NCBI GenBank assembly: GCA_000934665.2
Contig: KZ538103.1
Location: 1-64,000, forward strand
Length of the DNA stretch: 64,000 bases
Direction: 5' to 3'
From: Catajapyx aquilonaris
Lineage: Eukaryota
Shown here one piece after another: positions 1,435-21,001 of this stretch. How positions within the stretch are numbered: the first letter of the stretch is position 1; every line of letters starts with the position of its first letter. The position numbers and the translations under genes were made by a program. The notes beneath the pieces are model-generated. The model had not been told where the DNA came from, searched no databases, and saw nothing but the letters and a program-made list of their open reading frames with translations.

Positions 1435-3371
1435 CTAATCACCTTCCGATGCAGGGTGCTTTTGGCATGTTGATGATACAGTTCCATTCAGGTGCACCTC
1501 ACGTGCACAGTAATTATGACAACAATGTCGATGCTGTTGGCACTGCAACAGAAAAGCAATACATCAGACAGGTCGATTAATCATGCACTTATTCATGAAC
1601 ACTTTGAATGAACAGAATTGAGTTCAATTATTCGTTTAGGAATTTCTGACACCGAATATAACATTTAAAAAACAATTATTCCAACAGTAGGAGCTACATA
1701 GATTCGAGGCCAATGCATGAGGTAATTTAAGAAAAAATAAGTTCTTCCAAAAAAACTTAGGAATATAAAACCGGCAGTTCTTGTATGGCTCGTTGCAATC
1801 AGAAAATTAGCTCTTTCCAATGATTTAATAAAATGTCTGCTTTTCAAGTGCGATCTCTGAAACTTTGCTCGTCAGTGAGTATGTGACTAGTCATGCTTCT
1901 AGACATGCATTTGTCTAGGTAAAAGTCTGCATTAAAAAGAAATTAAGTGTAACATGGATAACTTGATATTATCTCAGTGGGAATATTTAAAATTTCCCAA
2001 CTTTGGCTACTTACCAACTCTCCAATCCACATGCAGTGCGTGAACTTGTGCAGTTCCTTGGGTGGCATCAGTGACTTCCTCTTCCATGCAGGAATGGTTT
2101 TCACAATCACAATTGTACCAGGAGGAAAAGTACCACCATCTACGAATGGGAATCCATTGGAAGGAAAAGTCCTATTCCATTCAGCTGTTTCATATGATTT
2201 CTGTAAAACATATGAGTCATAACTGGAATCTCCATTACCAGATCCTTCTTCGTCAGCTGACCTATTGCTGACTAGCTTGCTAGTTATATTGATGTCACTA
2301 GTCGCAACTGTGCTTCTCAGATTGCCTACTCTTCTGGTCGGAGCAGGCACTTTCATTTCTGGGAAATTAATTGGTGCTTTAATTGTCCACTGTGCTTCAG
2401 CCCCTGCTGACAAGCCAGTTTCATTCACTCTGACATCAGCCTTAACTTCAGGTGATCTGCTGACACCTACTGCAACACTGCTCTTCTTTTCCTGAGTGAC
2501 ACTTGCGAGAGTAGGAACAGTACTAGTTGACTTTTCATCACGAGGTAACCCTTTCCGTTTGTGTTCCCAGTATGCAGTGCTGAGCCTAGGTGTTTCTGTT
2601 GTCCTAAGATGGGCAGGATGCTTATATCGGCTAGTGGGAGTTGTGAGCACCTTCATTGCAGTAGTTGAGGTACTAACACTAGGCAGCACTGCCTTCCAAG
2701 CAGGTGCTGTCTTTTGAATTAGTCTAAAGTATGTGGTAGTAACTTCTGTTGTTGTAGTTATTGTTTCTGTCGTAGTAGTCGGTTTTGTTGTAGTTATTAT
2801 TTCTGTCGTAGTAGTCGGTTTTGTTGTAGTAGTCTGTGTAGTTGTAGTAGTCGGTTTAGTTGTAGTAGTAGCTTTTGTTTCAGGGATTGCTTTTGTTGTT
2901 GGAGCTGCACTTCTACGATTAGGTTTAGTTATCTCCCAAGGGTCAAGTGACTTCTGGGTGGGGATGGTAGCAGCCGAAGTAGTTCTTGTGGTGGACTGGA
3001 AATCCTTTGCTGGTATGTGACTTGTAATTCCATTGGGCTTCCTGGGAGGTGTTGTTCTATGTCTGGTGTAATATTCAGGGGCTACTGTGTACACTTGCAG
3101 CCGCTGTCTGCGCACTTCCTGGAAATTACAACAGTTCATTAAAATTTGTGTGCAAGACCCTCATATCTATTTCTGTCGTAAATCTTACCGAATTATTATG
3201 GGTTATTATGGGTTTTGGAGGTGGCGGCAAGCTAAAGTGGAGAGACTATGTTAGTAAATCTTCCCAGAGCCTGAACAAATATCATCACCTTCTTACGCAT
3301 GCTTGGCAGGAACTGATGACAAGAAGAATGATGAAGAAATTTAATTGAAGACACATTGTTGCCAGTGACAT
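1435..3371 (-). CDS. Secreted Thr/Pro-rich mucin-like protein with C-terminal inhibitor-cystine-knot (knottin-like) module, about 445 aa; CDS complement(join(3289..3371,3189..3231,2015..3118,1435..1542))
   Basis: Signal-peptide-like MSLATMCLQLNFFIILLVISSCQA; GT-AG introns with consistent phases (2,0,0); large exon with TTTKPTTTTE repeats. The splice at 2015/1542 gives C-MWIGEL-C-QQHRH-CC-HNY-C-x13-C, then stop at 1435-1437. An alternative donor at 3296 could skip the 43-nt exon in frame. Confidence 0.75.
2733..2875 (-). repeat. Coding tandem repeat, about 33-bp units (TTTKPTTTTE[I/T]-like), in the mucin exon
   Basis: Repeated gtagtagtcggttttgttgtagtt-type units on the plus strand. Confidence 0.85.
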
Positions 3372-4055
3372 ACTGATGCCTGGAGAGTAAGCTGAATTAG
3401 AAAACACTGTGCTTGGAACACATTTGCACGCATCACAACAGAGAGACATAAATATACAAAACACTCTTTGGGATTCCATGTTTTTCGCATCACCCAACAT
3501 CATTGGGTTCAATTACAAGCAACATCCAACATTATAAAATTTATGTAGATCCACACTCACATAAAAACTTATGTCAATGTGACCAAAATGCATTACTTTA
3601 AAGGAGAAAATGAAAGCATGACCACACTGAAGAGAGCTCATGATAACTTACCACGGCAGCAAGATGGAGTAGTTTGATTTCTTCGTGTATCGATGGATTT
3701 GCACACCAAGTAGGTCTGTGTCAAGTGAACTAGCAATGTCATCTGGTTTTATACATTGAGGATATTGCTTTTTCTTTCCCTTATCTGAAACAAGAGGAGG
3801 GGAAATGAGAAAAAAAATACTGACGCAAAAATGATGGCATTGGAAGATATGGAATGACTGGCAAGTGTTTCAGTTGGGATTCATTCATAAGCTGATGCAC
3901 ATCACAATCTTAATTACTACAACATTCCAACACTTTGCATTTCAGGCATAGCATTAAGTCATTATACTGTTGTTTGGTGCAAGAAACTCTAAATAATGTG
4001 AGAGTACAGCAGGGAGCATATGTTGAACTGCACGAACAGTAAGTACGTGCGTATG

Positions 4056-4167
4056 TATGTACTATATCGCTCAAAAAGATAGAGACGATTGGCATTTGAT
4101 TCAAGTGCAAGTTGCACTTGAGTCAAATGCAAAATCGTCTCTATCTTTTTGGGCGATATAGTACATA
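4056..4167. repeat. Near-perfect 112-bp palindrome (MITE-like hairpin)
   Basis: Arm 4056-4110 is the reverse complement of 4112-4167, with about 3 mismatches, 1 indel and a 1-nt spacer; TA at both ends. Confidence 0.85.
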
Positions 4168-6348
4168 ATGAAATCTCCGTAGTAAACCAACTTATTCGTT
4201 AATGAGGTATCTGAGAGGTTTTAAGTGACGCATGTTGTACGTTGCAAAATCATGCTTCAGTTGCCTAAAAATGTCAACAAAGCTTTTGCTGTTACGAATG
4301 CCAATGCAATTGGAACATGAGAGCATTTTTTAAGAGCAATAAATTCTCTGCTCCACAGAGGGATTTAAATGTTCCTTGGAACAATATTTTATAAGACATT
4401 AACTTTTTAACTTCACGTGTGGCTGAGAAATCAATTCTGGACTTCACAGTGGTTCCATTTACATGGTTTTAGACAGCCCTTGGCGGCAGAAGCCATATTT
4501 GTTATTAGTGATACTTATCCTTTACAACATAACTTCTTATCACGTAGTCTTTCAAGTTATGGACTTAATAGTATAAGCTTACCATGGATATTTCCTTAGT
4601 GGCAGGTGATGCTGGATATCCAGCTTGTCATGTTGGTAATGACATTCTTGCCTCCTCAATAATTAGCTTCACAAGAATCCCACTTCAAATTAACCTTAAG
4701 TCTATTCCATTCCCATTATTGCTTCTGTTATGCAACTCTTGAATAATAATACATTGTTGAATTCCCTTCCAATTTACTGAAGGCAGTGTCTCGGTTCACT
4801 TGTCGTGTTCATGGCTCTTAGATGGTATCATCCTTTTTCTTACACTTGCCTTCAGCGTTCTCTCCAATATGTACTCCTGAAAGATCAAAACAAAGTCAGT
4901 TATGTTTCCATCAGAAACTCTTCAGAATCTCTTGCATTTTTTCAAAATATCAGGCAACCATCAGTCATTAAGACAAATAATAATTATGTTGCAATACAGT
5001 GTGAGGATAAAGCATTATAATGCCATGAGACAAACACAAAAAATTTAAAATCATTAATTCTGAATACAGTGCTTGTGGGCAAAGCAGTGATTTACTCATG
5101 ACAACACGAAAATAATGTCAGTTATTAACAAAAGGTGGTCCTTTGGTGTCAAGCAAAATTGCAATTGCAAAGGTTTCTTCTCTGTGAGTCATACTAAAAT
5201 GACTAAAATGACTAAAATTCCCATGAATTTCACATGCATCTGGATCATCTGAAAGTTCACATATAACTAATCATTGGGATTTGCAGGAGATAATATTAAT
5301 ATTTGAGCCGTTGGAAATTGGAAATTTGCAACTAGTAAGTGTTCAACATTCACATTTGTGAATTGATCTATTTCTTTCACAAAATGTTGCACATGAAAGT
5401 TTGCAGGTTCTCAAACACTTATCAGCCTACATATTAGGAAATAACCTCATTAATATGCCACTTGTGCTCAAGCAATAAGATAAGGAAGAAGAATGTGCTT
5501 ACTCACGTCTAAACATCAGCGGTGACGCCAATGTGAGTATAGCATGGAGCAAAGATATCCTTGCATGATTTTGCTAATTTGGCTACTGACCCACCATTAT
5601 GAGAGAGAGCTAACAAAAATCTAAGGCATGTGAACAGCCCAGCCAGTTTGTTAGTTGCTATTCTACTGAACCAACTGAGGAATTTTAAAATTGCCAAGTA
5701 ATTACAATTATGTGCCTGCAATGCAGTAATGCACTCCATATTACTGAAGAAATCTTGCCAAAGTCAATTCGCAGAGAATGTCAGTGTAGTGCATGTGGCG
5801 CTAACTTACCTTTGAGACGATGTGAGGCACTTTTTTATTGGTTGATATTTTAAATGTGAATCACTTTCAGAATGCCATCTTTCTCCTCGAAGGAATGTGA
5901 ACACTTCTTCTGCCCTTAGATCAGTTTGTACCATGCATTTCGAGATTTACCTCACAACTGCATTGGTTGAAATGTCATGGACTCCCCTGCGTCAAGCTGG
6001 CATACCTGAGCCTGCCTTCTACTCAATGTCAGTGGAAGAACTTAAACCTTTCCAGTGCAACCCACACGTCACTCCCTCTCACTCTCCCCTTTCCTCTTCT
6101 TCAGGGTACCAACAAGACTTGCAGCTTACATGACATTTCCACCAATACAGATGCGCGCTAAATCATGAAACACCTGGTACACAGAGGAAATGATATCATG
6201 TGGTATTTGGCATAATCTGAAGTTTTATTAAGGACATTAGAGATCTTCTGGCAAAATTTACATGACTTCGCATTACATACTTGAGCAAATGCAGCAGGTG
6301 ACTCTCTCAACAGCAAGAGTTTAGGTGCTTACTTGAAAATTAAGAAAC

Positions 6349-8668
6349 TCAAGAGCGTCCTTGAAGTGGTTGGTTGGCATCTCCAGAGACGTCATGCTTG
6401 ACCTCCATCACTTCTTCTGCTGGTTCACTTTTCACCTCCCCAATGACCTCTTCAACTTGTGGGACTTCAGCCAACACTGCCGCAGTTGCTTGCTCTATCT
6501 GCATCTTCCATGCCTCTTGCACAGTCATGTTATTGGCAACTTCTCCTGCTTCATCTTTCATTTCCATTGTTGGTATGACTCTGTAAACAAGAGATTATTT
6601 CATGCCGTGTGACACAAGAAATACATTCACTGTTCCATCAACTATTATGCAAATGGCCTTTGTAAAAAGTAATGCCGGTTGACAAACTCTGATCTGAAAC
6701 CCTTTGGAGCAATCGCTTTTCAAAATTTGGAATTTTTCTGACTTCAGAATGGTATAGGTATCTCATACCTACATCCTCGGATATGTCAGGAATATGTTAA
6801 CTCATATATTTAAACATCATTAGGCCCTACTGTACATGCAGTAAAGCCTCTGAGCCAAAACGGATGTAATACATGTGAGTGGCATGTGATACACATTAAT
6901 TGCACATCAACTGAAACTCTTATGTCAGGACCAAACAACAGTGCTGTAATGGGCAAGTTTCCACTGCCTCTGTTATAGACAGGTTTCACTCACAAATAAC
7001 TGGATTAAAACTTGAAGAAGCAAAAGAAATCAGGTAATGCTGTCAACTTATGGACTACTCATTCTGCTTGTGGCTTCAACATGTGCACGTGGAAGCCAGA
7101 AATGCTTTTGATGGGACGCCACTTCTGCATGTGCTTGGGCTTCTTGTTCATTTTCATGTGCCATCTGCTTGGGGCACATCCACATGCACACATTCCTCCC
7201 ACACATGGCAACCAATGAAAGTCTTTGTGGATAGCCACTTGGAACATCCCTGCTTACCCCATGCATGTGCAGGCAGGGGTAAAATCACACTTGCGAACGT
7301 CTGACTTATCCACACACACATCGCCGCTCACTGATGGCAAAGCCCAGAATCACAGCTGCTTCAAACATTGAGAAGTAAAATTATCATTACTTACATGTAC
7401 ATTTCATTGTTTCCTTGCAGTAAGTTGGTTGCAGAGGATCCGTGTGAATCTAGCAACAAAGTAATGGGAATGTTTGCCATGTTTTGGGGCACTGACACGT
7501 AGGAGATTCCTGATGGCAACGATGTAAGTGGTGATGGTGAGGAGGACGGCACCGCTGGAGAAATGCAGCTAGATGCCGCAAGTCCTACAACCTGCTCCTG
7601 CTCTGCATGGGCGGTGGAAGATTGCGTCACTACCACCCTCGACTCCCCCTCCACCCTTGGGGATGACCTCAGCAGGATCTCGTTCGCCTCACTCTGGTTC
7701 AGTTCATCAAAAATATCCAAAAATAGCGTACGTATAGCTAACATTGCTTGGGATGTCAACGTGTCCATGAAAAGCGTAATCCGCTTGTAAATGTTGTTTG
7801 TGCTGCCAGGGTCGAAAAATGGTTCCTTCCCTTGGGTAATTTTCAACTGCTGGCACACCTGCCGACCACATGCCACATCAACATACACAAACATCACAGG
7901 AAAGTATTTGCCGTGGTGGACCAACAACTTCAGCATACTGCTGCGATCAAGCGTAATGGACACTTCTTCCTCACCTGAAAAGATCACGATTCCATTATTT
8001 CCTCCTTCCCTTCAAAGTTATTGGATATTTTTTATTTTAATCACTACTCAATGTCTACAATTATTACAATGTCAGATATGTAGACATGTACAAAGGAACA
8101 GTTACTCACTGTTGTGAATTGCAGGGACGGTGAGCTGTATTCCGGAGCTGCACAAGACGATGTGCTCCTTGACAAGTGTGACCTTATAAGACCCAATCCT
8201 CACATTCCGGCATTTGACCAAAACAGGGGGGCTTGTGTTCTTGGCAGTGTCAATGGACGAAGAGGTGAGAGGCTGGGCAAAAACATGGTGCACTTGATGC
8301 ATTTCCCTTCCATCAACATGCCTCTCTACTTCCCCTGAGTAGATGATCGGCTCCTTCTTGTGGCGCCAGCACAGTTCGTTCACGCTTACATCTTCTGCTG
8401 CAACTGACAAAAAATTTCCATTAAGTGGCACATCCTGCGACACACTTGTCAGCAAACCATTTACATAAAACTTGACGCAATGACCTTATTTTAAGTTGAT
8501 TCACTTACTGTTACCATCCTGCGCTGTAGCGGTTTCCTCTCTGATCTTCTTGAGATCCATCATCTTCACATCTTCTGGCAGCTTGCGGTGGCAGCGCTGG
8601 CAGGTGGTCACCACGCTGCTCAGATATCCACAGTGTGGGCACACCGCAAATTCCTCCGTAATTTCCAT
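6349..8668 (-). CDS. SENP6/SENP7 (veloren)-like protein, non-catalytic part only, about 421 aa; CDS complement(join(8509..8668,8110..8403,7395..7974,6349..6580))
   Basis: N-terminal CPHC-x9-CQRC zinc ribbon. Motifs KCRNVRIGSYKV, FFDPGS...KRITLF and EANEILLRSSP are recalled as typical of the region preceding the C48 domain in SENP6/7-family proteins. Intron phases 1,1,2 are consistent and the total of 1266 nt is in frame. No C48 peptidase motifs were found downstream. Probable non-coding first exon at about 9106-9290. Confidence 0.7.
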
Positions 8669-9497
8669 CGCTTTCTGGAAGAGCAAGGAAAAAATGAAAC
8701 ACGTTTGATCCCTTCCTGAAAAATGATTTGGCTGCGTCTGGATAATTGTTTAACAAGTTGTGTAGCGGGCCGGATGAGGTAAAACTGACAAGTCGTACCC
8801 AGATTCATACTTTGATGGGATTTGACCACCTATCCACCCAAGAAACATGTTCATATCTACATGTTGCTTCGCCCTGAAATTAAACCGGCCAAACGCTTCA
8901 CACTCCTGACTAGGCCTGACTGCTCCACATGCGAGACGGGTCCTCTGTGTGAGCAAGTCCCCTCAATAACCCAACCCAATTACGTGGGTAGTTTCATTGC
9001 AGCCATTTTGATTCCCCGTCCACGAAGAAACCCTTTGGGCCCAACTTTCTGCCTAAGAATCAACTGGTGAGCCCATTATATTCAGAAGGCGCCGGGAACC
9101 CGCACCTTTTCGTGGAAGTCGGCCGGCTGTGGCGGTTGTCAGCTGTGGTCAGTTGGGGGTGTCTTGGATGGGTCGGGCCACAGTGTCTAGAGCTGTGCCC
9201 TGGAAATGCGGAGGAAAAAGGACGACAAGAAGGGGAGCCTCTCTCAGATGGTCGTGCTCCGAAGGGCGGCCATCTTTGACTGGAACGGGAAGTAGGGCAA
9301 CACAGGGAGTGGGGTCACACTGGCGCCAACTTCAAACTTTGACCCCCCCAAAAAATGACCCGTGTCGTCTCTCTTGAAAAGGAGGTGTCGTTTCATCTGC
9401 ACCACTTCCAGACCTCTAGCTGGCTAAGTTAACAGAGGCCATTGACATTTTAAAATATTTGTGTTGACAACAAATGTGCATTAAACTGTGTCATTTG

Positions 9498-9511
9498 TGT
9501 CCCTCTGGTGG
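9498..9511 (-). promoter_or_regulatory. CTCF-like motif in the divergent promoter region between the SENP-like gene and the plus-strand ZF gene
   Basis: Minus strand CCACCAGAGGGACA; the first 11 nt match the consensus CCASYAGRKGGCRS. Confidence 0.35.
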
Positions 9512-10339
9512 TGAGAAGTGAAAGCGGCATTTGCTTAAAACTGAATGTAAATCGACAAAATTATTAAATAATGTACAGTTTAATGTGACATAAAAATGTG
9601 CGCGCAATAAAAACAAACGGGAGTCAGGAGCAATAAGAAATAACTGCGCGTAATTCGATACCGTATCGGCTCTTAACACATGTGCTTGCTTGCTTTGTAA
9701 TGCTTCCTCATGAAGGTAATGGGTAAATATTGGTGCATGCAATGGTCTGCCTGTATAGTGGTGCAATTGGTTTTTCCCACACACCAGTTGATTAATAATT
9801 GCAAAGTCTTGAAGCGTCTTATTGAAGCTTTTCTTCTAGCACCACACATTGGCCAGTGAGCATCGCAAAGAGAGGGGCAGTCCTTCCATGGGAAGTCATA
9901 GTGCTGGGCATGGCTAAGGTGAAGCAAGTGCGTTTCCAGTGCGACAATGAAGCCCGGGTGAGGTGTCACCATTCCAGTACAGCTACGTTAAAAATGAATC
10001 ATGCAGTTTTAAGGGTCACTTTGCTACCAATTAAAGATACTGTCAATGTTACTCTACGTGCACTTGGATTAATGTTCACTGGATTTACCCACAGGACAAG
10101 CAGTATCCCACTGGACAAGTAACCATTAAGTGCAAGATCGTGGTGTACAGCGAGGATAATCTGGGACCTTCTGACTGGCTACAAGAGGATGGAAGCAATG
10201 TGCGTTGATATGGCGCACCATACACAATTTTCACCAGTTGTTAAGAATTCAAACAATTTTGCAGATGTTTTAAAAGTTTAACAGTTCAAAGTGTTGTCTG
10301 TTATATATGTCTCTTGTAGCTGCAATTAAACTGCAGCTG

Positions 10340-12354
10340 ATGTATTTGCAGGATGACAACCGGTATTCCGTTCGAGTGACCAAGATTCATGAGGACAGGA
10401 TCCTGGGGTATGGAGATGATGATCCAAAACAGTCAGGAAAACAGTGTCAGTTTCTTGATACGCCTTGTTCAATTGGTGAGCTTGAGATTGGCCCCGAGCC
10501 GCAAGTAGATGAAACCAAGGTGTGTGTGTATATAGTCTACATGTAAATGTTTTGATAGTCCATGTACATTTTGTAACTGTTTTTCAATCCAATAATTTTA
10601 GCTGCCACCACATTTGCGAGGGCATAAAGTGTGTATCCTCGCAAGGATCAAAGATGATGATGATGATCCGGTGACGGTTGGGGACGCTGTACAAGATCAT
10701 GCCATGAGCCGTGATGAGGAAATCAAAGACGATACTTTGAATCTTGATGATGAAAGAAAAGATAAGACTTATGATGATGATCCGGTATCGGTTGGGGAAG
10801 CTGTACAAGATCACGCCATGAGCCGTGATGACGAAAAAGACAAGACTTTGAATCTTGATGACGAAAGCAAAGACAAGACTTTGAATCTTGGTGATGAAAG
10901 AAAAGACAAGACTTTGAATGAACCCGAGAAAAGCAAAGGTTAATGCCTGTACCATTCTTCAGTGCTCCTAGCCCATATTCTTGACAGTCGTGTAGTTAAC
11001 GAGTATATTGTGCACTAATATATGAGTAGCCTACCGTACAGTAGAAAAGGATTCTCATGGGTTGAAATAAACCTGTAATGTTCCCTTGTTATCCACTGAT
11101 AAGTTATAAAAAGTGTATGGAGTTTATGAAAATGTTGAATGGAGACTTGTATCAAATTCATCGTGACATTATTTTAATCAACATGGAAATGTTGAAGAGG
11201 CAAAATTAACTTACATTAACTGCAGTGTTAATTTCTTGTTGCAGGTGATGACAGTGTTCTCAGCAACTCGAGCAAGAAGGAGTCGGAGTGTCAGGTTAGC
11301 ATTAGTTTGCAACCATTCAAGGATTCTCCCTCAAAGAGTAGCATGACTGACAAACAGTGATGGAAAATACTCTTGAGAGGTCAATCAACAACTATACTGT
11401 ATGGTGCTCAAAAAAAAAGTACAAATTATAATAAGGCTCTCTGGATTGTCACGTAATGAATGGATGCAAAAACTTTCACTCTGTGTATTCTTTCATAATA
11501 TTATGTGTATATCTTCCTTCCCTTATTTCTTTTCAGTCTTCTAAAATATGTATCATAATAATCTCATAAATGTTATCTACCCTGCATACTGTGGTCAGTG
11601 TGTATGTTTTGGCACAACTTGGATTTAGGGTCGGTTTTACTGTGTGACTGTGTAGTGTGTGGAAGTATAACTCCTGACGCTGTGAGCCGTACTATACGCA
11701 GGATGTTCCAATCGTTCTTATTAAAATATCAGTTTCAGTGGGGAATTTTTTGGCACAAAGCTGCTTATTTTGAAGCAGATACTTTTGAATAGTTCTATTT
11801 AGTGGCAATCAAAAGTATTAGCATTTCATGTACATGATTAGGGGGATTGATTTCTACTCAGTGCATTTCAGACTCTGCAAGTTCTGGAAGAACATGTGGA
11901 TCTTGCAGGAGGCGAGGATATATGCCAAGTCCATGGAGAGATGGAGGATAAACCCGTCCAGATTGGAAGAAAAGGAATCCAAATGTGTCCTAGAAAGAAG
12001 GCCACTTCACTTACGCAATATCTATGTGAAATTTGTGGCAAGGTCTTTCGCCATAAGTCTCACTGGCAGAGTCACACGAAAGTCCACTCTATGGAAAAAC
12101 CATTCTGCTGTCTCTACTGTGACAAGAGTTTTTCGCAAATGGGAAACAAGAACCTCCATGTGAAAGCTGTTCATAAAACGGGAAAGACTTTCACATGCAA
12201 TATATGCAAAAGGGGCTTTGGCATTAAGGCGAATTTGGCTCGCCACATGCTGTGTCACACCAGAGTCAAGAATTACTCATGTTCCACTTGCAAAAAGACT
12301 TTTTATCGCAGTGATCACATTAAAAAACACATGAGACACTGTCACTCCATATAA
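10340..12354 (+). CDS. C2H2 zinc-finger protein (4 C-terminal fingers, acidic repetitive N-half); CDS join(10340 or 10352..10519,10602..10938,11245..11294,11872..12354), 5' end uncertain
   Basis: GT-AG introns in consistent phases (0,1,0). Fingers: CEICGKVFRHKSHWQSHTKVH, CLYCDKSFSQMGNKNLHVKAVH, CNICKRGFGIKANLARHMLCH, CSTCKKTFYRSDHIKKHMRHCH. Confidence 0.8.
10655..10925 (+). repeat. Coding compound tandem repeat: DDDPVxVGxAVQDHAMSRD x2 and about 33-bp KD[KD]TLNLDDE units
   Basis: Near-identical nucleotide units aaagacaagactttgaatcttg and gctgtacaagatca.gccatgagccgtgatga. Confidence 0.85.
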
Positions 12355-13799
12355 GCTGGGCTTGACACTCTAACCTGAAAGAAGAGATTTTGTCATTTGC
12401 CCTGGTTGTACTGTCACGTAGGCTGAATTGTCATCTACTGTGAACATGCATTTATTGTTGTTGTGATAATTGTTGCATGCCATTTATAACAAGATAAAAC
12501 TGTGGTAGATTTTCCTCCAGAGCTGTAAACAAGGCCTGTAAAGGGCATTCTTCTCATTTTCACTGAAATTTCACGATAAAGAAGTGCAGTCCCTGACTTT
12601 AAGGAACATCAGTGTGTTTCTTCTACATATTTTATGCAGCATGACCTCCTGATTATGGTGAGGGTATTAGGATTTACATACACAAATTTATTAATGTGTA
12701 GCTTTCTAAGCAGGATGAAATGTGATGTGCAGGGCATGTTATTATTTGCAGAGCTGTGAAACTGGAAAAGCCACAACCAACAGATGAATATTTTATGAAT
12801 TATTAAAACACTCTGATAGTGTACCTTACCAAAAAATATTGAAAATTGATATAATTCTGAAATATGTGGCATATTATTTTACTGTTGTTTCCATCGTGTG
12901 TAAATGAAGTGAATTGTGATTCGTGAGTTGCAAAAATTCCCAATTCTAATTTTTCAAGGCTTCTTAAAATTCCGGAAAAGGTGCCATTTTCTCATACGCT
13001 GCTGGACACAATCTGCAACAAAGTACTGTGAATGGCTGTTGAATTTTTGCACAGATTTTGCCACCTAATGTGACAATCTTGATCTTCACACATCATGGTA
13101 CCAGAGGTGTCTGCATTAGCCATTTCTAATACTTATCAATCCACAATGCCATGCACTACAGTAGTAATGAAGGTAAGGTATGTACCACTTTTCCAAGATC
13201 CACACTACAACTGCCTCATAAATGGTTGAGATTGTTTCATCCACGGTTTCATCCACTCTGCAGCTATGCATTACTTTTGAAATGACCCTCATATTTTGTC
13301 AGTTAAATTGAGGGGTACCGGGTTGAGATCACAGGAAAAAGACTTCCGATGCAAATGTCATGTTGCCTATGCCGTGTTTAACCACCCAATTACAAAGTCA
13401 CAATGATGAATTGAAAATTAGAGTAGCCTGGTTTAGAACCTGCAGATAACGACATCCTGATTTTGCTGCAGCCAGGCTGATAATGCAGCTCAATACCAAA
13501 GGCACAACAAAACACTAATTAGCAGCTGTGACACATAATGTAAGTCATTGGGAGAGTAATAATTAAAAGTCATCATTTATCACTGACAACATTCAATGTC
13601 ATCTTTACGTCTCCTGTGTATTTCCATATAACAAAATCATTTATCCTTTAACCACAGCACCCGTCATTTTCAAATATAATTTTCTTCGTTCACACACTTA
13701 TTGCCAAAGAAACGGACATGCATCCACATCCAGTGCTCAAAACTACATCGACCTTGAGAACACCTGGATAAAGGTTTGACATGTCACTGTCTTATGCTA

Positions 13800-14426
13800 G
13801 ACACATGCCACGCCAGGTCAGGCTGATCGCACCAGTCCTCCCCAACATATTTAGTGAGTAGTGATTCAATAACTGCACTTGGTTAGTTGTAGTTCTTTCG
13901 ATCTTCTTGGAGAGTCTCATTGGAGCATGCATCAGTTCTTGAGTTATTGAAAGCAAAATTGAAGTGAGATTTGCAAATTTGTTTGTACTTGACTAAACCT
14001 GGGTTTTCCTTGTCAAACATGCACCACAGATTGTGGAAGCTTCGCAATTCTGCAGGGGGGTAACGCCTGCCCACCTTCCAACAGCTGTAGTAGCTCTCCC
14101 TTGCCTTCAGCATTCCTTTTGTCAATAAAAGCTGTTGTCTTACGATCGCCACCCCTACCTTCGGATGGTGCTTCGTCATGATGCACAACATGCTTGACAA
14201 CTCGAGCTAACTGGCACTTTCTGACACTGAGAATTCCAACAAAGGCCAGTTTACACACCTGGACAATTTCCCCTGACTTCTTTCTAATGTGATACTTTGG
14301 TTCAAGGAATCTCTTCTTCAACACACTCTTGGTAAAATTGCCTGATTCAAGGCTGACCAGCAGGATGGCTGGGTGGTATTGTGCTGGATTGCTCCTATTA
14401 TCCCATGTAACCTGGTTTTTATGCAA
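13800..14426 (-). mobile_element. Degenerate, frameshifted and internally deleted DNA transposase fragment (Sola-like)
   Basis: Two overlapping frames give VCKLAFVGILSV...EGRGGDRK, then ESYYS...RRY..AELRS...HFNFAFNNSRTDACS, a motif order recalled from Sola-type transposases. LLTKYVGEDW lies just downstream. Family assignment is from memory, not from a search. Confidence 0.6.
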
Positions 14427-14639
14427 CCAAAACTTCTAAGCCAGCCTGATTTTGTTCTGTCCACACAATTTCAGATTATTATTATTATTATTATTATCAT
14501 CATTTTTTGCATGGCAGAGGCTGATATTTAAAATATATGGAACGATGGTACAGTATTTAGCATGGACGAACTAATGCTGGCAAATGGTCCAATATTTTCT
14601 AATCAGTGTGAATTATGAGCTTGTGATTTCAGTGGAAAC

Positions 14640-14880
14640 TTTTCTTGGAAGATTGTCTTATCGTCACAGCCTAAGGTTTCGAGTTCAATCCCCATTTCGG
14701 ATGGTGCATTTTCTCAAGTGACACGACTTTCAATGGGTTCTCTCCATATTTGCATGAGTTTTTGTCAGGGTGCTCCTATTTCCTCCCACCATCAAAGCCC
14801 ATCATCAATTAAGATGGAGGAATAAAGTTGGGAATTAACGAGGATCCCTATGAGACCACAAGCCTATCACAATATAACCG

Positions 14881-14927
<47 letters not shown>
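14640..14927 (+). mobile_element. tRNA-derived SINE with V-domain-like core and (ATT)n tail
   Basis: B-box-like GAGTTCAATCCC at 14681; core gttctctccatatttgcatgagtttttgtcagggtgctcctatttcctcccac resembles the V-SINE central domain; (ATT)n tail at 14881-14927. 5' boundary is approximate. Confidence 0.65.
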
Positions 14928-15171
14928 TGTTAAGTCTCTCCTGCAGCATGACTTGTCACCATATCCTTAACCAGGTGACAATAAAAATTGCCTTTACATA
15001 CATCCTTTTACCTACACCATTATTATCAGGCTGACTTATCCCTGCATGGCCAAATCATTGTTGCTCCCAAAAAAAGGCGTTTTACTCAAATCCTATACAT
15101 ATTCATCTGAATGAGTTCTCATCAGGTTGCTAATCAATGCCTCTTATCCTGAAAATGACTTGTTACATAAT

Positions 15172-15630
15172 TCACATGAGAACACAAATGGACGCTGCTG
15201 CAATCGCTAGCATTGTGTCTTCTTCATCATCATCGTCATCTTCATCATCATGGGCTTGAAATATTCTACGAGAGGCATTTCTTTTGAATGGCTTACTTTC
15301 AGAATGGTGATTTCTCTTGTGCCTTGCCACACTCCCGCGTGACTTATACTCTCTTTGGCACAAATCACATGAGAATTTCTTCCCACTGGCTTCAGTGCAG
15401 GTGGGCGGTCCTAAAAGTTGATCTTCCCCACCTTCAGCATCCTGCTTCACACGAACCATTTCCTTCTCTTCCTGCCCTCGTTGCACGGCCTCCTCCTTCA
15501 TCCTCTCGACAGTCACCTCTTCTTCCATCAAGGATGGTGCCTCCTGCTTCAGTTGTACCTGCCAAGTATCCTCAGTGGTGATGCCACAATCTTCTTCCTC
15601 CAGCTCTTGCTTCTCTGCGTAACCTGGCAT
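15172..15630 (-). CDS. Truncated C2H2 zinc-finger paralogue (1 intact finger), 152 aa; possibly a pseudogene
   Basis: N-terminus closely paralogous to the 16065 gene; one finger CDLCQREYKSRGSVARHKRNHH; the second finger has lost both Cys. Confidence 0.65.
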   Translation of the reverse strand: MPGYAEKQELEEEDCGITTEDTWQVQLKQEAPSLMEEEVTVERMKEEAVQRGQEEKEMVRVKQDAEGGEDQLLGPPTCTEASGKKFSCDLCQREYKSRGSVARHKRNHHSESKPFKRNASRRIFQAHDDEDDDDDEEDTMLAIAAASICVLM

Positions 15631-16064
15631 AGCGAAGGTGACTCGATGTCAAAATAACAGACAACTACACAAGAACATGTGCAAATTCAATAGGTTTTAA
15701 TGTAATTCCAAAATAAAAATACTACCTTGGCTGCCAATTGTCTTACTAATACTCATACCTACTTACTATTACTACTACATACTTACTAATACTATATTCA
15801 TTAGATATTACGAATATCTAATGAGGCAAGATTATCGCAGTTTAAGAACTTCCCGACTCCATTTACAGTTTATTAGTTAGCAACACTAACTAAGTAACAC
15901 TTAAACAGCTTCCCATGAGCACAGTTTAACCTTATGTTTCTGCACAAATCACACAAGTTTGGTGACATTTGTAGTTGAAATCATCCTCAAATTGCACATT
16001 AATTAATTATCGTTGCCACTGTTCGTATAGGGGATGAATTTCAGAAGGATTCACACTGACATGG

Positions 16065-17105
16065 CTACTTGCTAGGATGATTATTTAAATGATAATGTAA
16101 ATCAGATTGTGCCAAAGCACCACGAAACACTTTGTTGCACAATTTACACTTGAGGAATCCCTGACGTTTGTGCTGATAAACCTTGTGCACGTTCAGTTCA
16201 GATTTTGTTGTAAACTTCTCTCTGCAAAACTCGCACCTTACATTTCTTTCCAGTGAATGAACCGTATACTTGTGTCTAACCAGGAAATGATGATAAAAGA
16301 ATTTCCTTTCACACATATTACAACCAAATGGCTTTGCACGTGGATGACTCTCACGATTGTGAATTGTCAACTCAAGGCTCATGCAAAAAAGTCTCTGGCA
16401 AAATTTGCAAGTGAATGTCACTTTCACACCATGCTCTATCTCCATGTGCTCCTGAGCATCGTGGTGAAACAAGAAGGTACCTTCACACACATTGCAGGTA
16501 AAGTTCATCACCAGAAAATGTCTTTTCTTCTCATGTCTAACCAAAGCATCCTTGCAGAAGAAAGATCTGACGCAAAAGTCACATGCGTATGACTCCATAC
16601 GGGTATGAACAGTCTTCAGGTGGCTAACCAGCTCCTCACACCCTGCAAACGACTTGCTACAAAATTCGCATGAAAATGGATTGGCTTTGGTACGACAACC
16701 CTGTTTGTGTTTTATGAGATGTCGTTGCGCCTGAAAAGATTTGTGGCAGGCATCGCATGAGAGCGGTTTACATTCAGGGTGTTTCTTTCTCATGTGCCTT
16801 GCCATGCTAACAGGTGACTTACACACACTTTGGCAAAAACCACACTGGTACTTCTCCCCACCGGCTTCCAGTCCTTGAAGCGGATCTTCCCCGTCATCCG
16901 CCTCCTGCTTCACATGCACCATTTCCTCCTCTTCCTGCCTGTCCTGCACGGCCTCCTCCATCACCCTCTGTATGTCCACCTCTTCTTCCATCAGGGACGG
17001 ATCCTCCTGCTTCATCTGGATGAGCCAAGTCTCCTCGATGGTGATGCCACCACCATCTTCCTCTTCCTCCGGCTCTTCCTTCACTCTCACCCCAGGCGCC
17101 ATCAT
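16065..17105 (-). CDS. C2H2 zinc-finger protein, about 9 fingers, about 346 aa (likely start MMAPG at 17105, after the acceptor at 17108)
   Basis: Continuous ORF with an acidic VKEE/MKQE/VKQE N-terminus and nine CxxC...H fingers (one C2HC, the last atypical). Confidence 0.9.
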   Translation of the reverse strand: MMAPGVRVKEEPEEEEDGGGITIEETWLIQMKQEDPSLMEEEVDIQRVMEEAVQDRQEEEEMVHVKQEADDGEDPLQGLEAGGEKYQCGFCQSVCKSPVSMARHMRKKHPECKPLSCDACHKSFQAQRHLIKHKQGCRTKANPFSCEFCSKSFAGCEELVSHLKTVHTRMESYACDFCVRSFFCKDALVRHEKKRHFLVMNFTCNVCEGTFLFHHDAQEHMEIEHGVKVTFTCKFCQRLFCMSLELTIHNRESHPRAKPFGCNMCERKFFYHHFLVRHKYTVHSLERNVRCEFCREKFTTKSELNVHKVYQHKRQGFLKCKLCNKVFRGALAQSDLHYHLNNHPSK

Positions 17106-17358
17106 TCCTGCAACAGCAGCATTGTTATGCAGCATCACCTCTACCTCTGCCTGATATGATCCTTCCAGTACAACCCTGCACCCACCTGATAATAACTTGT
17201 GTTGATGTAAACCAATGGTCAGATCTTCAGCCTTATTGATAGCCTTCACCAGATGAGATCCAAAGATGCTCCAACAGGAGCTACAGACTCATGTTGAAGA
17301 GGAATGAAAACCGTTGTCGTCTCCAACTCCAAGGGCGCATTCGGACCGATGCTTGTTC

Positions 17359-17372
17359 CCACCAGATGGCGG
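17359..17372 (+). promoter_or_regulatory. CTCF-consensus motif upstream of the 16065 ZF gene
   Basis: CCACCAGATGGCGG is a full match to CCASYAGRKGGCRS. Confidence 0.5.
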
Positions 17373-18389
17373 GGGTTGTCACTTTCGGCGCCAAAATTCA
17401 GCTTAATTTGAAATGGCACTTTCAGGGTACCGGCGGTACTGTGCAGTACTCTTCCTCTTGTTTGCCAGACAAGAATGCTGTGTTTGTATGGAATAATGTC
17501 AAGTAGGCCGGCACACAATTTAAATTGGGTACTTGCAAGGTACTTGGTATTAGTCTGACACCCAGGGTGGTCTGTACAAGCCGACAAACCACAGTGTGGT
17601 TGTTGAATTTGTTCATTCTGAATGGCAACAAAAATACAATGATCAAACTAGTGAGGTCTTTCTGCAAAACACGACTGGTTGAATTATAAGTGCTGAAATA
17701 GACAAAATTATTCTAAAATAGTCAGTGAGAACCATGCTAATTTTAAATACAAACCATTTATTATATAGGCATAATTATGCAAGTACTTAGGACACTAACT
17801 AGACTTATATAGTTACAAATTTTTAAAAAGTTCGGATTTGTTGCACAAAATGTTACATGCAAAGTGCTCTTTGCATTTCTGCAAATGAAAGACCAATACA
17901 GTAAAAATCGCCAGTGTGCCAAAGCAACATTGAACAGATTTTCCAACATGAAGTTCTTGTCATAGGTAAGGCTCCAACTCAGTCATGTTTCAAAGTTACC
18001 GTACATCCTAATGCAAACGCAGCAAGTTTCCATCATAAATAAATGTACACTTCATAAAATACGTGCTTCATAAAATACGTGCTTCATAAAATGCTTCATC
18101 AAACAAGAGATTAGGGATGGATAGATAGGTTTTCATTGCATTCACGGTCCGATAAAAACGGGGGTTCATACTATGCATACTAATTTTGCAACACTATGTT
18201 TGGCTGAGTATAGCCCTTGATACTGATGCGCCATAAAAATCTCAATCAATAACCACCAAACCTTAAAGAAAATTATGCCCATGCCCCTGTTCAGCTAGAG
18301 GGAGCAGGTGTCGCAACCCGTGATCAAAAGAGAAGCAACCCACCATAAGCGCCATCCAAGCAGTACTTGCATACAAGAATGCCATGAAA

Positions 18390-18734
18390 ATTTCAGCCCC
18401 CCATGCATTTGCTCAGCAAATGTCATTAAAGATCTCGTCCAGAAATTGATATGAGAAATCCTCATCCCACTACGGTACGGACCTGTCACCCTGTGGAATT
18501 CATGTTTTTGGTGAACTGAATAAACCTTTCTGAGGATGCTGATTACAAATGGACAATGAAGTGAAGGATAAAATTCGGAACAACCCAAGGGCTTTCTATG
18601 AGAAAGAAATTCGATGTCTAGTGTCTCAATTGGATAAATGTACAAATCATCATGGGCAATACTTTTGAATAAATGGTAAAAAGTAACCTTCCTGTAGCCT
18701 TCAGCTCGTTATTTATTGACTGATCCTCATCGTA
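18390..18734 (+). mobile_element. Degenerate mariner transposase 3' fragment with right-end remnant
   Basis: Translation across stops and frameshifts: ANVIKDLVQKLI*EIL / HP.Y.TDLSPCGIHVFGEL / DNEVKD...FYEKEIRCLVSQLDKCTNHHGQYF*. This matches the mariner HPPYSPDLxPxDFHxF and WDKCxxxxGxYF C-terminus. Terminal ...TTGACTGATCCTCATCGTA. Confidence 0.8.
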
Positions 18735-19489
18735 GGTTGCTTCCTTTTCCATAATGTGATGCATCACCTGCTCCTTCAAGCTACACATGTACATGTGCAT
18801 AATTTTCGTTAGGGTTTGGAGGTTATCACTGCCAATCAGCATTATTGTCTGTCCCATAGGTATTCACAATAAATTTGGCTTGTTTGTTATTGACTGTACC
18901 TAACTTGCATTAAGCCTGGAATGAAATAAAAACTTTCCAATAAACTGGTAGTTAACTGGGCAGGATGAGGCGAAATATCTCGGATGCACAGGAAAAAGAG
19001 CATAAGTCAAAAAAGTTAATTTGTCAGGAGAGCAGATTATGTTAAATACTGGACTTCTTGTAAAGATGACATACCCCTCCTCGCACATTTTTTTTTCCTA
19101 GCCTGGTTTTAGGGCTTGACATGCAGCCTTCTGGCAGAACCAAGAGGGACTCCTTGTGACCATAACTGGCATAACAGGACACATAACTCAATTTGTACAT
19201 TTTCTGACTTATGCTCTTTTTCCCGCGCATCCAAGATATTACTGACCAACATAATCATACTACTACTACTACTGAAAGGAAGACTAAAAATTGATCAGAG
19301 CAGCCCAATATTTGACTAATGTTGATAGGCCTTGGATGAGTTTTACAACTGTTGGTGGGATGGCCTCCAATACTGTGACTCGACACAACAATCTTCAATG
19401 AGTACATACCAGTATCTCTTATTACGACAAGGACTTCCTGTAAGATGCGTACAATTAAAAAAAATAAAATGCAATACTTATGAGTTTGC

Positions 19490-20716
19490 CTAATGCAAAT
19501 AATTTTGGCATGCCATGAGTCCATTTTTGAAATATGTCTTCATGTGGCAACCTAAATCATAACTTGTGGAAAACATTTTGTGACAAAATTTGCATTTAGA
19601 CACTTTCTTATTAACATGAGTACTCTTCATGTGGCGACCTAAATCGTCACTTGTGGAAAACATTTTTTGACAAAATTTGCATTTAGGCACTTTATCATTA
19701 ACATGAGCACTCTTCTGGTGCCGAGCCAAGAGCTGATTAGTAAGAAATCTTTCTTGGCAAATGTCACACTGAAACTGCTTGCTCTGCTTGGTCAGCTTGT
19801 GTCCAGTTTGACGTCTCACATGATCAAACAACATGTAGCGGGTGGCAAATGTCACTTGGCATGTACCGCAAGTGAATGGCTTGTCCATGCGTGCTTGTTC
19901 ATGCATCAGTATATGCTTAAGGAGACCGTCACTTTCAAACGAGTTGTTGCTTGGCTCATAAGTATTATCTTTAGGTTTGGTAGAATGGACACGCTTCAAG
20001 TGCTTAGCTACGTCTGAACGAGTCTGAAATACTTCATCACAATACTTGCATTTCAATCGCGTATCAACAGGCGCGTGAATGATTTTCATGTGAGTAAGTA
20101 ACTCACCGCTGGTGTCAAAATCCTTGGAGCAAAATGCACATGAGAATGGCTTTGCAACAGTATGAAACCTCTTCTTGTGCTTAAGCAAGTAACAATTTTT
20201 TTTAAATTCCTTAAAACAAATATTGCATATGACTGGTTCATTCTCCCTATTCTTTCTCACTTTGTGTCTTGTAGAGCTAGGATGTGCAACAAGCTCATGT
20301 GCAACGAGTGGCCTGTGTTCAAAGAGTGGATCATCGGCAATGAGTGGATCGTCGGCAATGAGTGGCTTGTGTTCAAGGAGTGGATCGTCAGCAATGAGTG
20401 GATCGTGTTCAATTAGTGGAGTATGTCCAAAATCCTCTTCAGCATGAACACTAGCGTTTGGCACTATGAAGTGATCATACGATTGAGAAGGTCCCTTCAC
20501 TAGGTCTTCTAGAAGTGCACCTTCTTCCTCCTCCTCCACGTCGACCTTCTCCACCTTCAGCATTCTCTCCTGGCTCACCTCCTTCTGCAGGTCCCCCAGC
20601 ACCTCTTCGAAATTCACCTCATCAAATAAATCCGGGCTCTCCTGCTTTATAAAAACCTTCCAGGACTCCTCTGTGGTCACATCCTCCTCGTCAACCTCCT
20701 GCTTCACGATACCCAT
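19490..20716 (-). CDS. C2H2 zinc-finger protein, 408 aa (about 6 intact and 2 degenerate fingers)
   Basis: ATG-initiated ORF; acidic VKQE/IKQE N-terminus; PLI[AE][DH]D hexapeptide repeats; C2H2 fingers. Probable 5'-UTR intron at about 20742-20799. Confidence 0.9.
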   Translation of the reverse strand: MGIVKQEVDEEDVTTEESWKVFIKQESPDLFDEVNFEEVLGDLQKEVSQERMLKVEKVDVEEEEEGALLEDLVKGPSQSYDHFIVPNASVHAEEDFGHTPLIEHDPLIADDPLLEHKPLIADDPLIADDPLFEHRPLVAHELVAHPSSTRHKVRKNRENEPVICNICFKEFKKNCYLLKHKKRFHTVAKPFSCAFCSKDFDTSGELLTHMKIIHAPVDTRLKCKYCDEVFQTRSDVAKHLKRVHSTKPKDNTYEPSNNSFESDGLLKHILMHEQARMDKPFTCGTCQVTFATRYMLFDHVRRQTGHKLTKQSKQFQCDICQERFLTNQLLARHQKSAHVNDKVPKCKFCQKMFSTSDDLGRHMKSTHVNKKVSKCKFCHKMFSTSYDLGCHMKTYFKNGLMACQNYLH

Positions 20717-20986
20717 CGTGCTAAAACATGAAAGGTGGCACCTGTAAAGTGGAGTTCAATACGCCAGCAGCCCTCTGTGCGTATTCTTTCTTTCATTACC
20801 TGGCCAGCCTGCGCCCTTGTGGTTCTTCTCCTTGCCCGTCCATCGCGAGGCCGGACCTCCAGGGCCCTCCTTCCACGCAGTTCATCAGCCTGGCCACAAA
20901 AGGGATGAAAAATGTCAGCAAATGGCTGCCATCTTGGTTGCTTAGGGAGGGTCGCATTCGGGTGGACGTCTTCGGGGGTCGACAGT

Positions 20987-21001
20987 ATAGCCATCTAGTG
21001 A
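20987..21001 (-). promoter_or_regulatory. CTCF-like motif at the promoter of the last ZF gene, at the edge of the gene desert
   Basis: Minus strand TCACTAGATGGCTAT, with core CACTAGATGGC. Confidence 0.35.

Follow-up and report, generated by a model that had tools for sequence, protein, structure and literature searches.

The window analysed here is a 64,000-nucleotide stretch of Catajapyx aquilonaris DNA that begins at base 1 of its contig. On its minus strand lies a chimeric, spliced gene: exons for a zinc ribbon and a PH-like domain, which stem from an old duplicate of SENP6/7, are joined to the head exon of a C2H2 zinc-finger (ZF) gene (Table 1). Its four coding exons, referred to below as exons 1 to 4, form a single open frame of 421 codons, and the coding introns are of phases 1, 1 and 2. 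The product contains, in order, a zinc ribbon (residues 10-26), a PH-like domain (residues 113-258), a linker rich in S, P and T, and an acidic tail with the psi-K-x-E/D motifs MKDE, VKSE and VKHD, encoded at 6561, 6435 and 6402. The four-exon model of the original prediction, the peptides quoted in it and these three motifs are all present in the frame; the model was nevertheless incomplete, as a spliced non-coding exon (9268-9106) precedes the first coding one.

Table 1. Exons of the chimeric gene and head-bearing ZF loci in the window.
Feature	Position	Strand	Remarks
Non-coding first exon	9106..9268	-	Joint 8674/9106 in X5; extent is the reach of the contig
First coding exon (exon 1)	8509..8674	-	ATG at 8668; C4 zinc ribbon CPHC...CQRC at 8641-8591, from SENP6/7
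Exon with KEPII motif and initial strands of the PH-like domain (exon 2)	8110..8403	-	Without the SIM-like stretch of the parent
Exon with remaining PH-like domain (to 7655) and 87-residue S/P/T-rich linker (exon 3)	7395..7974	-	
Captured C2H2-ZF head exon (exon 4)	6349..6580	-	Stop at 6351-6349
3' untranslated stretch	6213..6348	-	In the same X5 contig; AATAAA at 6229-6224
Neighbouring intact ZF gene, same head	16065..17105	-	5'-UTR intron ends just before the ATG; X5 joint 17106/17185
Neighbouring ZF gene, same head	19490..20716	-	
Neighbouring head-bearing ZF copy	15172..15630	-	Frame stops after one finger

Splicing of the gene is documented by one contig of 1571 nt (n=1) from sequencing run X5, compared over window positions 1501-21000. 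It carries the joints 6580/7395, 7974/8110, 8403/8509 and 8674/9106, each with GT-AG borders, and shows 0 mismatches to the window in the three pieces listed. The first of these joints is the predicted junction between exons 3 and 4. The five-exon model has exactly the length of the contig, and no ATG precedes that at 8668; stops also lie in frame upstream of it, so that the first exon is non-coding. DNA run X1 is unspliced across the same joints. Five sequencing runs match the gene, namely X5 and four DNA runs from which the assembly may have been built; none of them is recorded as RNA. X5 comes from a different sample and study, its library type is unrecorded, and it is treated as RNA solely from its GT-AG joints, so the evidence of expression is a single contig from a single sample. 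The contig extends 136 nt beyond the stop, to 6213, and ends 11 nt past the AATAAA; a contig as such cannot prove an RNA end.

The chimera has no C48 catalytic domain with a His/Asp/Cys triad. The C48 profile (PF02902) has no match on the window's contig and 19 matches in the genome, all elsewhere. Because the X5 contig passes the stop and the window's contig holds no C48 match, the transcript does not splice on to C48 exons, a course that the original prediction had named as fatal to it. Exon 3 ends at a phase-2 donor, and the same donor in the parent precedes a C48 exon. The claim that a phase-2 splice leads to exon 4 where the protease should follow is therefore right as regards the splice, but not as regards its position, since exon 3 first runs 87 residues beyond RSSPR, much like the exon of the parent.

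A full-length parent had been expected elsewhere in the genome, and it is found at G000:C581:48418-53718, where the gene runs on into a split Peptidase_C48 domain with intact His, Asp and Cys motifs. Its introns are seen in X5, including a phase-2 intron ahead of the first C48 exon (one inner acceptor of the parent model deviates by 9 nt from the X5 joint, in a region that the comparisons here do not use). Searched against the genome, exon 3 returned five matches, the exon itself and four at 53-54% identity on contigs C581 and C2537, and two additional genome queries returned the same set. The chimera keeps three exons of the parent together with their phases 1, 1 and 2, its first coding exon being shorter than the parent's counterpart, and the sequence after the third donor is replaced. 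Exon 3 is 54% identical to the parent, which disposes of the doubt whether these exons are related to SENP6/7 at all, and a 70-row tree of the domain pairs the window copy with the parent as sisters (support 100/95). Its terminal branch is about three times longer (0.58 vs 0.17). Judged by these alignments, the zinc ribbon and the pre-catalytic PH-like domain are homologous to those of SENP6/7, as had been proposed. The name SENP6/7 itself is taken from homologues, a krill protein with PF02902 and the P0032 cluster, which contains a 'sentrin-specific protease 6-like' entry from Schistocerca cancellata. A SIM-like pattern located between zinc ribbon and PH-like domain, I-L-T-I-S-S-D, is missing in the window copy and present in 13 of 25 full-length homologues; the pattern missed the parent, where the stretch is visible by eye, and a pattern match is no binding test. 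The parent also has an apparent GC-AG intron within an insertion of its catalytic domain (L059:7715-7777; G000:C581:52717).

Young 5'-partial duplicates of the SENP6/7 gene, with 92-97% exon DNA identity, lie at C581:69100-72900, C581:79700-82145 and C2537:1-805; the end of C581 and the start of C2537 overlap at 99% and may be one locus. These copies (L003-L005, L009, L010, L012) stop at nearly one point in exon 3, and a repeat beside this end presumably resembles the tail of a Tc1-type transposase. All have lost 69 nt that cover the SIM-like stretch, a deletion common to them, and X5 contains reads that match these copies. A shared deletion tying the window copy to the young C581 duplicates was considered and rejected, as the two deletions differ in length by one codon and the divergence of the window copy is far greater. 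About 650 bases after a truncated SENP copy, on the same strand, lies an F-box gene (L004:1454-2155; G000:C2537).

The SENP-derived part of the chimera is under relaxed yet real purifying selection. Over 190 aligned codons, with gapped and poorly aligned stretches omitted, chimera and parent differ by a dN of 0.31 and a dS of 1.35 (95% CI 0.95-2.3), a dS that is rough because the ML estimate is 3.4 (saturation). The resulting omega is 0.23 (95% CI 0.12-0.34). If synonymous rates are equal, neutral drift on the window branch alone, adding about half of dS, would exceed the whole observed dN. Neutral simulations left the frame intact 37 times in 2000 at d=0.1 and 0 times in 2000 at d=0.25 and above. 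A profile built from 53 homologues with a C48 domain gives the window domain 151 bits, compared with 178 for the parent; no neutral descendant of the parent reached 151 bits (0/300 at each of four levels from d=0.2). The best-conserved positions of the domain are kept at 22 of 26 sites in the window copy and at 23 of 26 in the parent. Relative to krill, the window copy has 26 unique changes vs 11 in the parent (p=0.02), and its longer branch fits either a changed partner or relaxation. The combination of silence and neutral drift that the original prediction had considered is thus at odds with the X5 contig and with this omega, and the age of the copy (dS about 1.3) together with omega of about 0.23 makes a pseudogene unlikely. 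That the gene is a transcribed duplicate, recently relaxed or decaying and with no present function, is most improbable: the accelerated rate, the internal losses in the first two coding exons and the occurrence of the transcript in one sample only would suit it, but the frame is open over four coding exons, five exons are spliced cleanly and omega is 0.23 at a dS above 0.95.

The other half of the gene has a different ancestry. Within the 64-kb window, the three best other matches of exon 4 are three ZF heads (E 1e-6 to 3e-5), and the next match has E 1.2. Genome-wide there are 22 weak matches besides exon 4 itself, and all 14 of the 14 retrieved have C2H2 fingers nearby on one strand. To avoid circularity, a second set of heads was collected with a different seed, the head from the 17105 ZF gene, which gave at least 121 matches (150 of 274 candidates scored). 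A head profile built from 28 of the top 30 matches, with the two window copies excluded, scores 29.9 bits on exon 4; none of 2000 shuffles reaches this value, the maximum being 16.5. In a six-frame scan of the window with this profile, exon 4 ranks third, ahead of the intact gene at 20716. C2H2 fingers were present in the downstream stretch retrieved for 21 of 28 head loci, and the head matches no Pfam family. On sequence grounds, exon 4 is homologous to the head exon of an acidic-head C2H2-ZF family, so that its proposed origin from the N-terminus of a ZF gene stands. The ZF genes at 15-20.7 kb had been called downstream; in the direction of transcription they are upstream. An alternative origin of exon 4 as a remnant of the parent's C-terminus was rejected (no match in 62 kb of C581, best E 0.34). 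A finger array is absent after exon 4, as the stop follows directly after the head. A candidate decayed finger at 6265-6190, downstream of the exon, scored 4.8 bits, no better than random window frames. Two other heads deserve mention in their own right. The ZF copy at 15172-15630 has 68% DNA identity to the 16065-17105 gene and ends in a repeat-like acidic stretch that matches other transcripts, and in the head at L024:1492-1788 the first half is duplicated internally, giving four psi-K-x-E motifs.

The three psi-K-x-E/D motifs of the tail recur in 5 of 10000 shuffles. They are inherited from the head family, whose lysines in these motifs rank among its best-kept columns; exon 4 keeps the first and third, the invariant middle one is replaced, and the D of DPL, another family residue, is also missing. 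Exon 4 retains 14 of 23 conserved columns vs 6 of 53 variable ones (p=2e-5), and neutral decay at d=0.48 or more leaves 14 or more conserved columns in at most 1.7% of 3000 runs. Such retention is evidence of constraint after the fusion only on condition that fusion and duplication are of about the same age. It is also the point on which a distinctly unlikely alternative turns, namely that only the SENP half is selected and exon 4 serves as a terminal exon providing a stop and a poly(A) signal, with the SUMO motifs as leftovers. The concentration of retained residues in conserved columns speaks against it under the same condition of age. In its favour, exon 4 forms the second-longest branch among 38 head sequences (1.62), the invariant middle motif is lost, a frame of its 76 codons is fairly likely to remain open by chance (123-369 of 2000 runs at d=0.67-0.25), and transcription is likewise seen for young truncated SENP copies whose tails are unrelated. 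The head tree, with exon 4 on its long branch, does not single out one ZF gene as the donor. Close to its end, exon 4 has a V-K whose register agrees with that in two local genes and in 1 of 34 distant heads, which is a hint only.

The join itself very probably arose in a few steps. The 5' half of a SENP6/7 gene would have been duplicated into a ZF cluster, where its phase-2 donor would have captured the ZF gene's own 5'-UTR acceptor, 4 nt ahead of the ATG; the ZF start codon would then have decayed to ATA, a stop would have arisen after the head, and the finger array would have been lost. A predicted YAG acceptor stands exactly 4 nt ahead of the ATG in 22 of 28 head loci, many of which are close paralogues. 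Since such a 4-nt leader matches the frame of a phase-2 donor, a SENP donor spliced to a ZF acceptor would be joined in frame. The acceptor of the chimera seen in X5 is followed by 4 nt, then by ATA at 6576-6574, where the head family has ATG, and then by codons that align with the opening residues of the family. The first acceptor lysine is the seventh residue in the chimera and the sixth to eighth in 25 of 27 family heads. In one local ZF gene the acceptor shown by RNA is 2 nt ahead of the ATG, so the 4-nt spacing is not universal. The promoter and first exon of the chimera have no significant similarity to those of either the SENP or the ZF gene; the SENP half may have brought a promoter of its own or have inserted into the first intron of the ZF gene. 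A AAGATGGC motif at about 9276, just upstream of the first exon, which we take to be YY1-like, occurs in both the SENP and the ZF gene. The plus strand carries, at about 9800-12354, a C2H2-ZF gene that includes an exon of acidic repeats and stands head-to-head with the chimera; the promoter between them may be bidirectional. On the other side, at 1943-about 5900 of the minus strand, follows a gene with a long Thr-rich, mucin-like exon and no Pfam match.

Gain of a domain by duplication and subsequent joining of exons of adjacent genes is described by Buljan et al. 2010 (PMC2926785), and the chimera was very probably made by this commonest known route. Together with the KRAB-transposase fusions reported by Cosby et al. 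(bioRxiv 2020.05.07.082677), these cases share with the chimera a duplication followed by splicing of a foreign domain to an effector exon of a ZF family. In contrast to the cases presented there, the head of the chimera is C-terminal, the fingers are gone and the partner is the non-catalytic region of a protease rather than a DNA-binding domain. The donor family also resembles the FiNZ and KRAB ZF families, as outlined in the main text of Wells et al. 2023 (PMC10547256), in that a short, acidic head exon precedes the exon with the fingers; however, there is no sequence family match, and the donor head is about 75 residues long with psi-K-x-E motifs. SUMO is not mentioned in the main text of that paper. 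Given the common route, the single chimeric gene and the protease-less derivatives found in other arthropods, the description of the locus as an undescribed system was an overstatement.

The segment ahead of the protease had been predicted to be PH-like. Pfam has no family for this domain, in either the window copy or the parent, and a PDB sequence search returned nothing significant. Exon 3 modelled alone reached a pLDDT of 52 and was unusable. The model of homologue P0042, built from 59 rows, has a mean pLDDT of 83, with 138 residues at 90 or above. Its top Foldseek ranks are SSRP1-N, SYCP2 and Pob3. VIA-align places SYCP2 first (Z 10.0, rmsd 2.5, 103 aligned), followed by maize RDR2 (Z 8.8), SSRP1-N (8.7), Rtt106 (8.1) and Pob3-M (8.0), and the further entries are PH-like domains throughout. 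Similarity to PH domains of the SSRP1/Spt16/Rtt106 type amounts to Z 8-10 with rmsd 2.5-3.5, values that unrelated PH domains nearly reach. Matches in the ESM Atlas all scored under 0.9 and are leads only. A PH-like fold for the family, as predicted, is thus supported by way of the modelled homologue.

The domain also occurs apart from the protease. When 1.84 billion representatives were searched with a profile, the PH-like domain turned up in 288 proteins, the best 150 of which were examined. Among these 150, a C48 domain starting 18-77 residues after the PH-like domain is present in 64, 61 are too short to judge, and 25 have no C48 although at least 100 residues follow the domain or the domain is repeated in tandem. 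The named sources of the latter are Amblyomma (six copies), Ixodes (three), Trichogramma, Aphidius and Oedothorax, in addition to unnamed records; all are predicted proteins, and some may be annotation errors. Ticks have tandem arrays of up to six copies, and the family is expanded in Aphidius. Among 28 scanned proteins the Pfam partners include Sina-type RING, BTB, DEK_C, RING plus PHD, YEATS and SP-RING (C48-less or fusion proteins: P0009-P0016, P0019, P0041, P0070, P0075, P0095, P0105, P0121, P0141, P0157). The tree includes 15 C48-less rows; those from at least six lineages cluster, on starred branches, with rows that carry C48, which suggests that C48-less forms arose repeatedly. These tick, wasp and spider proteins resemble the chimera in having the SENP6/7 PH-like domain without the protease; they differ in their separate origins, in their tandem repeats or other partner domains and in the lack of a ZF head, for which the best score among them is 2 bits. 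Among the best 150 domain matches there are 0 informative head matches and no orthologue of the chimera in another species; word-based homologue searches with exon 3 and with the head alignment also found none, these being weak negatives.

The chimera belongs to neither the SENP6/7 proteases nor the ZF family, because the defining catalytic and DNA-binding parts are absent. With SENP6 and SENP7 (Ulp2-like, MEROPS C48) it shares the zinc ribbon, the KEP-V/I motif, the PH-like domain and three exons with phases 1, 1 and 2; it differs from them in lacking C48 and the SIM-like I-L-T-I-S-S-D, in its foreign C-terminal exon and in its roughly threefold faster evolution. One possible, if on the whole unlikely, role is that of a neofunctionalised chromatin adaptor independent of the parent, in which the PH-like domain would have a partner in chromatin or among the histones, with the acidic head bringing in ZF cofactors or gripping histones in the manner of FACT or Rtt106. 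The leading fold matches, SYCP2, SSRP1-N, Rtt106 and Pob3-M, are chromatin PH domains, the window copy evolves faster, and the fusions and tandem arrays listed above mark the domain as an autonomous module. Yet function cannot be read from a common PH fold, and the score of maize RDR2 is equally high. The tail of the chimera is also less acidic than the family heads (21% vs 32% D/E), and FACT/Rtt106-type chaperones have tandem PH domains, whereas the chimera has one.

The preferred reading, tentative and just short of an even chance, is that the protease-less product is a non-cutting competitor or adaptor in SUMO signalling. It would occupy some docking sites of the parent protease and keep SUMO there. 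The model for this is mouse Senp5S, which, in the account of it given by Yamada et al. 2021 (PMC8710555), has no peptidase activity and blocks deSUMOylation by competing with active SENPs. The chimera is likewise a SENP product without a peptidase domain that is expressed alongside the active enzyme, transcripts of chimera and parent both occurring in X5, one sample. Senp5S, as described there, is however an alternatively spliced product of one and the same gene, a member of the SENP3/5 group; the chimera is an old paralogue, a gene in its own right that combines a folded PH-like domain with an exon captured from elsewhere, and competition is proposed for it by analogy. By the same analogy, the PH-like domain and zinc ribbon would still bind a partner common to the parent, as Senp5S does with its substrate, and the retained family acceptor lysines 352 and 394 would let the tail carry SUMO to that site; for these two steps the chances are likewise put a little below even. 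Recruitment of SENP6/7 to poly-SUMO is credited, in the passages of PMC12098989 and PMC6726658 that deal with it, to SIMs in a disordered region. As the SIM-like motif is absent from the chimera, any competition would have to act through the folded domains. For the PH-like domain of SENP6/7, the open-access literature searched describes no partner. The plain SUMO decoy of the original prediction is in part weakened by the missing SIM-like motif, the missing invariant middle psi-K-x-E and the lower acidity of the tail.

A wider version of the competitor reading is unlikely. It holds that the PH-like domain is an uncatalogued autonomous targeting module, detached from its protease many times in arthropods, and that the chimera is a sign-inverted regulator, depositing or holding SUMO where the parent removes it. 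If this is true, the chimera would go to the sites of a SUMO protease carrying acceptor sites from the head of a ZF silencing family. The open-access literature searched describes neither the chimera nor a PH-like domain in SENP6/7 nor paralogues in arthropods that lack C48; a label for the PH-like fold may already exist in domain databases.

The locus records an unusually legible gene birth, in which the DNA still shows the parent, the donor family, the splice phase and the decayed start codon, and selection has maintained the product. It also draws attention to a PH-like domain ahead of the SENP6/7 protease that several arthropod lineages appear to keep without the protease. The recurring free PH-like domain is arguably a wider lead than the chimera itself, and such natural protease-less versions are ready probes of how SUMO-chain proteases find their targets.
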